Below are positions 28,171 through 28,620 of a stretch of DNA of 64,000 bases, piece by piece. Numbering within the stretch: the first letter of the stretch is position 1; each line of letters begins with the position of its first letter. The translations under genes and the position numbers were made by a program. Location: NCBI RefSeq assembly GCF_003790525.1, contig NZ_CP033635.1; one strand, written 5' to 3'. This DNA is from Escherichia coli. Lineage in GTDB: Bacteria > Pseudomonadota > Gammaproteobacteria > Enterobacterales > Enterobacteriaceae. A model generated the notes under the pieces. That model had not been told where the DNA came from. It did no database searches and worked only from the letters and a program-made list of their open reading frames with translations.

Positions 28171-28389
28171 TTATGGAAAACGATTGCATTCACAAAATGA
28201 CGTCCTGTCATGAGGGAGAAAGTTGACGTTAATCAATTGTTCGAGATGATCAATACCTGTATTCGAAATTTTAAAATATTGATAAAATAAATGTTTGTTC
28301 TCCAACAAATAGCGTGAAAAAATGTGACGTGCCGCATTATTTATCGCTGAAAATGGTTTATTTATAATAAAATTTGAGAACTTGCTCAT
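28171..28389 (-). CDS. tdcR: Putative tdc operon activator TdcR (72-aa form; reading frame is open to 28527, 118 aa)
   Basis: Divergent from tdcA; internal start MSKFSNFIINKPF gives 72 aa; real start uncertain. Confidence 0.6.
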   Translation of the reverse strand: MSKFSNFIINKPFSAINNAARHIFSRYLLENKHLFYQYFKISNTGIDHLEQLINVNFLPHDRTSFCECNRFP

Positions 28390-28620
28390 TAAATTTAACT
28401 CAAATTTTGCCTGGTAATTATCCGGTAATTGCTTGAAATATGGTCTCAGCCCCTTTTTTGTATTAACCACATAACGAATGATGTTATCGCCATAAAATAT
28501 GGTTATCCCCGTCATTTTTTTTGACAAAAATCAGGGTTTATGCTGATTTTTATACTTTAACTTATTGATATATAAAGATATTTAATTGAAATAACGATGC
28601 CCTGGAATGTATTGAAAGTT

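Follow-up and report, generated by a model that had tools for sequence, protein, structure and literature searches.

At which codon does translation of tdcR, the small reading frame divergent from tdcA in Escherichia coli, begin, and what are the codons that lie upstream of its annotated start? The key experimental papers on tdcR are those of Schweizer and Datta (1989), Hagewood et al. (1994) and Sawers (2001); in the papers found for the present analysis, TdcR is described as an activator by citation only. The question was raised by a stretch of 64,000 nucleotides of E. coli DNA (referred to below as the window), for which the original prediction left a choice between proteins of 72 and 118 amino acids.

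Candidate starts and annotation of tdcR

The program's ORF list and a reading of the sequence agree that the minus strand is open from 28527 to 28171, as had been predicted: 118 codons are available from a TTG at 28527 (translation MSKKMTGITIFYGDN...LNLMSKFSNF...CECNRFP), and the frame is closed upstream by an in-frame TGA at 28533-28531. In addition to the TTG, in-frame starts are found at ATG 28515, for a product of 114 aa, and at ATG 28389, for one of 72 aa (MSKFSNF...); GTG 28470 is a further in-frame start codon within the upstream extension. The two outermost starts lie 177 nt (TTG) and 189 nt (ATG) from the tdcA start codon (28704, plus strand), close to the predicted distance of about 180 bp. 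The features considered in this study are listed in Table 1.

Table 1. Positions in the window of tdcR, tdcA and the sequence elements between and within them
Feature	Position	Strand	Remarks
tdcR as annotated	28171-28389	-	ATG 28389, 72 codons plus TAA; matches PGAP, K-12 and NF008507
Codon 25 of the 72-aa ORF	28315-28317	-	TCA here; TAA (nonsense) in B2-type E. coli
Upstream extension of tdcR (46 codons, 138 nt)	28390-28527	-	Open only in E. coli and its closest clade
Second invariant block, minus-strand sequence ATATTTCAAGCAA	28429-28441		13 nt, inside the extension; invariant in Escherichia
Direct repeat, GTTATCGCC and GTTATCCCC	28483-28491 and 28502-28510		Starts 19 nt apart; overlaps the 24-nt block
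24-nt block, plus-strand sequence ATCGCCATAAAATATGGTTATCCC	28486-28509		Invariant in 22/22 Escherichia sequences
IHF-consensus-like site TATCAATAAGTTA	28558-28570	-	From sequence reading; in fast-evolving AT-rich spacer
CRP-type site TGTGAgtggtcGCACA of the tdcA promoter	28625-28640		From sequence reading; invariant in Escherichia, Salmonella and Citrobacter
tdcA, LysR-type activator, divergent neighbour	28704-29642	+	Control for coding evolution

The region is 100% identical to that of E. coli SC516 and 97.4% identical to that of K-12-type strains (901 nt), and is present in 5392 of 5426 complete genomes. It was correctly predicted that the annotated TdcR is the 72-aa C-terminal part beginning MSKFSNF: RefSeq/PGAP and K-12 MG1655 (NP_417589.4) annotate exactly this part, equivalent to 28171-28389, and PGAP places no annotation in the extension across 5388 genomes. 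The NCBIfam model NF008507 (an equivalog of 72 positions) matches residues 47-118 of the 118-aa ORF at its positions 1-72, with 166.5 bits against a cut-off of 100, and the 46 N-terminal residues fall outside the model. The context expected for the TdcR family is present, the gene being divergent from tdcA with tdcB following tdcA, and the arrangement in K-12 is alike. TdcR of K-12 (b3119, NP_417589.4; NF008507/PRK11424) occupies the same locus and the same 72-aa frame, divergent from tdcA and adjoining yhaB. Relative to that allele (L016), the window allele (28174-28389) has seven nucleotide differences, all nonsynonymous and none synonymous, which change six residues; the 138 nt upstream of tdcR are identical between the two. 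A 114-aa call is found in GenBank-derived protein clusters, with thousands of member sequences, so the ambiguity is real in the public databases.

The initiation signals are weak at all of the starts, and better at ATG 28389, which they favour. Pairing with the anti-Shine-Dalgarno sequence was calculated at -2.2 kcal/mol for ATG 28389 versus +0.6 kcal/mol (no Shine-Dalgarno) for ATG 28515, and local structure at -6.9 versus -11.7 kcal/mol, the upstream start being the more structured. The Shine-Dalgarno sequence of ATG 28389 is of median strength only, and its GAG is AAG in other species. The G+C content is 33% in the extension and 32% in the tdcR body, and 50% in the window as a whole. When the 138-nt extension was shuffled with its dinucleotides preserved, 3.4% of the shuffles remained stop-free in frame; an open extension is thus somewhat unusual, and many such cases are expected in a genome of several thousand genes.

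A simple promoter scan of the tdcR strand did not find a sigma-70 consensus. A tdcR promoter, TTTAAA-16-TATAAA, has been predicted (PMC3946193), and would place the mRNA start near 28541, upstream of both long-form starts, so that the long form is possible at the level of the transcript. A literature search for ribosome-profiling, N-terminomic or transcription start site data for tdcR found none, and tdcR is not mentioned in the supplementary data of the TRAINSPOTTER and acid-stress Ribo-seq studies. The transcription and translation starts of tdcR were reportedly addressed by experiment by Hagewood, Ganduri and Datta in 1994.

Several neighbouring features were also noted. A CRP-consensus-like palindrome, TGTGAtcctcaACACA, is situated at 28121-28136, approximately 40 nt beyond the tdcR stop codon, and is conserved in all of the Escherichia loci and in Salmonella (84% over 28110-28145). 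B2-type E. coli, E. ruysiae, E4930, Salmonella and Citrobacter (L003, L004, L008, L028, L029) lack the genes yhaC and yhaB (26167-27975), and in these the tdcR region is directly followed by rnpB and garK; yhaB-yhaC represents an insertion/deletion polymorphism of an AT-rich island adjoining tdcR. The yhaB gene (27376-27975, minus strand) has a similar start ambiguity, with 199 codons open from a GTG versus 179 aa called by PGAP. Rfam matches in the window include the RNase P RNA (rnpB; 25569-25945, plus strand, 318.6 bits) and a borderline match to the ES036/CssrF sRNA (44825-44865, minus strand, 38.4 bits versus a gathering score of 37.6).

The upstream extension in Escherichia and other genera

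The tdcA-tdcR region was aligned for 22 distinct Escherichia sequences, derived from E. coli of several lineages, two clade-I-like genomes (L010 and L018), E. ruysiae, E. whittamii, genomes of the E4930/E1V33 type and E. albertii; E. fergusonii is not among them. TTG 28527 and ATG 28515 are found only in E. coli and in L010 and L018, its two closest genomes. Elsewhere in the genus, TTG 28527 is replaced by TTA, and ATG 28515 by AAG or CAAGG. Six loci (L004, L008, L011, L012, L013 and L014) have in common a 1-nt deletion near 28461, as well as in-frame stops, and in the true frame of these loci a stop is encountered 26-31 codons upstream of ATG 28389. Genomes of the E. ruysiae, E. whittamii and E4930 types combine the loss of both upstream starts with the 1-nt deletion and in-frame stops, and the extension of E. 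albertii contains two in-frame stops. E. coli EC590 has a 1-nt deletion of its own in the extension, a frameshift, and its 72-aa TdcR is still called intact by PGAP.

ATG 28389 is kept in 21 of the 22 sequences, the exception being E. albertii, in which it is ATA. Three indel events were counted in the extension, and the 216-nt body is free of them. The interval from the 1-nt deletion to ATG 28389 was also searched for another in-frame start conserved across the species, and none was found. Stop-creating substitutions in the extension, read in the E. coli frame, number 2 versus 7.0 expected (p = 0.03), a count that is biased because the frame chosen was already known to be open. For the sequences compared, the alignment shows that the long frame and its upstream start codons are lineage-specific, and that ATG 28389 is the sole start common across Escherichia. 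Conservation of the upstream 46 codons among relatives had been proposed as a check on the original prediction, and its outcome is clearly against the long form. The predicted ambiguity is genuine to the extent that both forms exist on paper and in databases, but they are not equally viable, as the comparison and the curated annotation both favour 72 aa.

It had also been suggested that the extension overlaps the promoter-proximal region of tdc. The tdcA promoter is said to contain a CRP site at -43.5 (work of Wu, Patil and Datta in 1992) and an IHF site at about -104 (work of Wu and Datta in the same year). If the invariant CRP-type site at 28625-28640 is, as we assume, the one at -43.5, transcription of tdcA would start near 28676. 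Measured from that position, the whole extension would cover approximately -149 to -286, and the 24-nt block -167 to -190; the extension would therefore belong to the far-upstream region and not to the core promoter, contrary to the suggestion.

The spacer between tdcA and tdcR has been flagged as H-NS-associated (PMC3946193), and a 'promoter island' has been catalogued there (PMC3661553). In studies of evolution in the mouse gut, recurrent adaptive IS5 insertions and an A-to-C change were observed in the tdcA/tdcR intergenic region (PMC7518454, PMC7064181). Assuming an offset of 1975 nt between genome versions, the sites of these changes (K-12 positions 3265168 and 3265132) convert to approximately 28626 and 28662 in the window; this conversion would put them in the tdcA promoter, at its CRP site and its -10 region, and not in the extension.

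Upstream regions of tdcA from other genera were retrieved by means of their TdcA proteins. Seven outgroup genomes representing six genera have a counterpart of the 24-nt block, in each case 214-220 nt upstream of the tdcA start codon, with matches of 23/24 in C. farmeri, 22/24 in Salmonella, 20/24 in C. freundii, 19/24 in both Trabulsiella and Yokenella, and 18/24 in both Pseudescherichia and K. aerogenes. Its conserved core is the direct repeat (G/T)TTATC(G/C)CC, the two copies of which start 19 nt apart. Nine of the 13 nt in the second invariant block are also invariant in Salmonella and Citrobacter, and the homology with Yokenella and Trabulsiella spans this block; in those two genera the extension is the only part of the tdcR locus held in common with Escherichia. 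An intact tdcR ORF was found in 0 of the 7 outgroup genomes. The occurrence of the 24-nt block upstream of tdcA in genera that do not have an intact tdcR ORF argues, therefore, that the extension is ancient cis-regulatory DNA of tdc. The block is a candidate transcription-factor site of the tdc operon, and one might guess that the protein binding to it is TdcA.

An out-of-frame small ORF (28446-28493, minus strand; MAIT...) begins at an ATG inside the invariant block and is 15 codons long in E. coli. Its counterpart in Salmonella, C. farmeri, E. albertii and MOD1-EC7003 is longer, at 32 codons, and terminates at a TAA situated 5 nt ahead of the tdcR ATG. Outside the conserved DNA blocks the peptide sequence is not conserved, and the ORF could be a uORF or a coincidence.

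These observations bear on how the 114-aa calls are to be viewed. They resemble the N-terminal over-extension produced by gene finders in AT-rich DNA, in that a longest-ORF call of 114 aa exists beside a curated shorter start, and the extra codons have neither a Shine-Dalgarno sequence nor conservation as codons. Unlike the usual case, the over-extended part is itself strongly conserved, apparently as the cis-regulatory region of a divergent operon. Nucleotide conservation within the species would thus wrongly suggest a coding extension, because the DNA in question would be conserved for its cis-regulatory role.

Evolution of the 72-codon ORF

Substitutions in the annotated ORF were compared with those in tdcA, which served as a control for coding evolution. 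In pairwise comparisons with the other Escherichia species, the tdcR body has dN/dS values of 0.54-0.96, and differences are distributed evenly across codon positions (e.g. 8/10/8). The corresponding dN/dS values for tdcA are 0.01-0.05, and 59 of its 67 differences from E4930 are at third positions. Parsimony on the tree assigned 123 nonsynonymous, 39 synonymous and 2 stop-creating substitutions to the body, versus 115, 42 and 8.1, respectively, expected for the same base changes at random sites. On branches with an intact ORF, 79 nonsynonymous and 28 synonymous substitutions were counted versus 75.1 and 27.8 expected, a ratio of 1.04 (rough interval, 0.67-1.67). By codon position, the totals are 54/59/52 overall and 32/40/36 on the intact-ORF branches. 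Neither a dN/dS well below 1 nor an excess of third-position changes, which would indicate purifying selection, is thus seen in tdcR.

The frame has, on the other hand, been kept open, with no indels in 216 nt across the 22 sequences and with stops avoided. The 2 stop-creating substitutions in the annotated frame fall short of the 8.1 expected (p = 0.013); the other two frames have 9 versus 8.0 and 8 versus 11.0. The absence of indels and this depletion of stops, confined to the annotated frame, are the only signs of coding in the 72-codon ORF. The original prediction had called it unclear whether TdcR is a real regulator, and the ORF does evolve with an unusually weak coding signature. Despite the avoidance of stops, three lineages have a nonsense codon or a lost start. 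In B2-type E. coli (L003), the TAA at codon 25 was confirmed by translation and is flagged by PGAP as an internal stop. The exact 61-nt allele containing TAA-25 is present in 558 of 5362 E. coli genomes, so that 10% or more of the complete genomes of the species have a nonsense allele. The other disruptions are a nonsense codon in L014 and the ATG-to-ATA change in E. albertii.

Relatives of TdcR outside Escherichia were not found in a word-indexed collection of 5.8 billion proteins, in a HMMER search of 1.84 billion representatives or in a set of one genome per species. One apparent distant homologue (P0052; 27% identity over the full 118 aa, E = 4e-10) was rejected as an A-to-G-converted E. 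coli sequence. Its changes are systematic (K to G, N to G/S, I to V, Y to C), and it probably results from the assembly of reads that had been converted by chemical or enzymatic means; an argument from homology for the long form would be misled by it. At E values up to 1, Pfam yielded only a sub-threshold BESS motif (14.9 bits versus a cut-off of 21), located in the extension, and no relatives of TdcR were found in the PDB. TdcR is named under the helix-turn-helix class of DNA-binding transcription factors, but profile searches did not recognise a helix-turn-helix or other DNA-binding domain in it. AlphaFold2 models had a mean pLDDT of 45 for the 72-aa form, with one helix (residues 19-42), and 35 for the 118-aa form. 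These low-confidence models are uninformative as to a helical fold, because the alignments on which they are based are shallow (10 sequences for the 72-aa form).

The entire tdcR locus has a collinear DNA counterpart in Salmonella, C. freundii and C. farmeri. Identity of the tdcR body to E. coli is 62-64%, and 70-73% among these outgroups themselves; for the spacer between the promoter and the extension, the values are 48-54% and 55-70%, respectively. When the 556 nt upstream of tdcA (28150-28706) were compared with the Salmonella and Citrobacter loci L028, L029 and L034, only one or two 1-nt indels were found, despite 35-50% substitution, an indication that spacing is strongly constrained throughout the upstream region. 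Read in the tdcR frame, the outgroup DNA contains several stops and a frameshift, and the ATG is absent in Salmonella and C. farmeri. An alternative conserved ORF was not found in the tdcR-homologous DNA of Salmonella and Citrobacter. The retention there of collinear DNA riddled with stops means, therefore, that the DNA is conserved whether or not it constitutes an ORF. DNA homologous to the body is absent from Yokenella, Trabulsiella, Pseudescherichia and K. aerogenes. The 72-codon ORF was either born in Escherichia or has decayed in the Salmonella-Citrobacter lineage.

A structured RNA element at the locus was considered and rejected: consensus folding of eight genomes (five Escherichia, Salmonella and two Citrobacter) gave only -0.4 to -5.5 kcal/mol. 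The tdcR region has no match in Rfam at E values up to 1, so the conserved DNA is not accounted for by an RNA family. In being intact in one genus, with non-ORF homologous DNA in sister genera, tdcR is similar to lineage-restricted (orphan or de novo) small ORFs, and the likeness extends to an omega of about 1, the lack of a domain and a low-confidence fold. Unlike most orphan small ORFs, tdcR has a published genetic phenotype.

Alternative explanations and implications

Taken together, the data make it very probable that TdcR is a protein of 72 aa, translated from ATG 28389, and that the extension is regulatory DNA of tdc. The 138 nt by which the frame is lengthened to 114 or 118 codons would not be coding; they would belong to the far-upstream regulatory region of the divergent tdcABCDEFG operon and would presumably serve tdcR as promoter and leader too. 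They contain the direct repeat GTTATC(G/C)CC-N10-GTTATCCCC, whose distance from tdcA is fixed in several genera of enterobacteria. The long frame would have opened in the ancestor of E. coli and clade I, via a 1-nt length change and new TTG and ATG codons, and would have remained open since because the extension DNA is under constraint and hardly varies among E. coli strains. We infer, in addition, where the tdcR mRNA starts, and that ribosomes would never use ATG 28515 in E. coli. That start might instead be used by E. coli and clade I to make a TdcR of 114 aa, alone or beside the 72-aa form, by a recent N-terminal extension from regulatory DNA. The E. coli sensu stricto sequences that were sampled have the frame open, and in 4136 of 5388 genomes the 141-nt upstream stretch has an identity of 99% or more, which is greater uniformity than in the ORF body; the starts and the frame are, however, missing from all other Escherichia species, EC590 has its frameshift, and the conservation is explained by a cis-element found also in genera that have no intact tdcR ORF. 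Although the predicted promoter would put ATG 28515 in the mRNA, no Shine-Dalgarno sequence precedes that codon. Gene finders prefer the longer form (hence the thousands of GenBank calls), stops are depleted in the extension frame and the chance of its being open is 3.4%, but most of the extension changes in L018 and the B2 strains are nonsynonymous, and the 118-aa AlphaFold model has no confident fold. We regard a 114-aa product as improbable.

The start question would be moot if tdcR were not a conventional protein regulator. The locus would then be ancient conserved non-coding DNA upstream of tdcA, the ORF a young overlay or a decaying remnant, and the reported trans-activation from plasmids possibly a titration of a silencer (e.g. 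H-NS) by this AT-rich DNA; the association of the spacer with H-NS and its listing as a promoter island (PMC3946193, PMC3661553) are consistent with this. The intact-ORF ratio of 1.04 and the even codon positions (54/59/52), as opposed to the dN/dS of 0.01-0.05 in tdcA, point in the same direction, although an omega near 1 is legitimate for young or small proteins. The ORF has been knocked out independently (TAA-25 in at least 558 of 5362 genomes, the L014 nonsense codon and the E. albertii ATA), yet stops are depleted in the annotated frame alone, indels are lacking and the ATG is conserved. A homologue outside Escherichia was not found among 1.84 billion representatives, nor was a Pfam domain, a PDB relative or a confident fold, and Salmonella and Citrobacter retain the collinear DNA, with stops and a frameshift, the body being more conserved than the spacer; conserved RNA structure, however, was not found. 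The genetics of 1989 (Schweizer and Datta) and 1994 (Hagewood et al.) also weighs against a role of the DNA alone, as a trans-acting tdcR product, and a polypeptide in minicells, were reportedly observed. On this evidence, activity belonging to the DNA is unlikely, if by no means negligible. It may be proposed, tentatively and with more doubt than confidence, that tdcR is an Escherichia-specific 72-codon ORF superimposed on older conserved non-coding DNA, free of constraint at the amino-acid level and lost from a major E. coli lineage, and not an ordinary regulator gene.

With regard to the start itself, curated annotation had already settled on 72 aa, and the present results add comparative support. 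They also serve as a warning about GenBank, where the 114-aa 'TdcR' entries, of which there are thousands, are over-extended. The conserved direct repeat approximately 215 nt upstream of tdcA, common to at least seven genera, is a concrete candidate for dissecting the control of tdc, which bears on the use of serine and threonine by E. coli in the gut. TdcR is entered in regulatory-network databases as a transcription factor, yet constraint of the coding type is not seen in the gene, and 10% or more of the complete E. coli genomes have it as a pseudogene. Network models may have to be tested again, as may the view that tdc is controlled by 'two activators'. If the doubts about an ordinary regulator gene are borne out, TdcR would be a small protein of de novo origin observed at an early stage, or else a textbook 'activator' whose activity belongs to the DNA.
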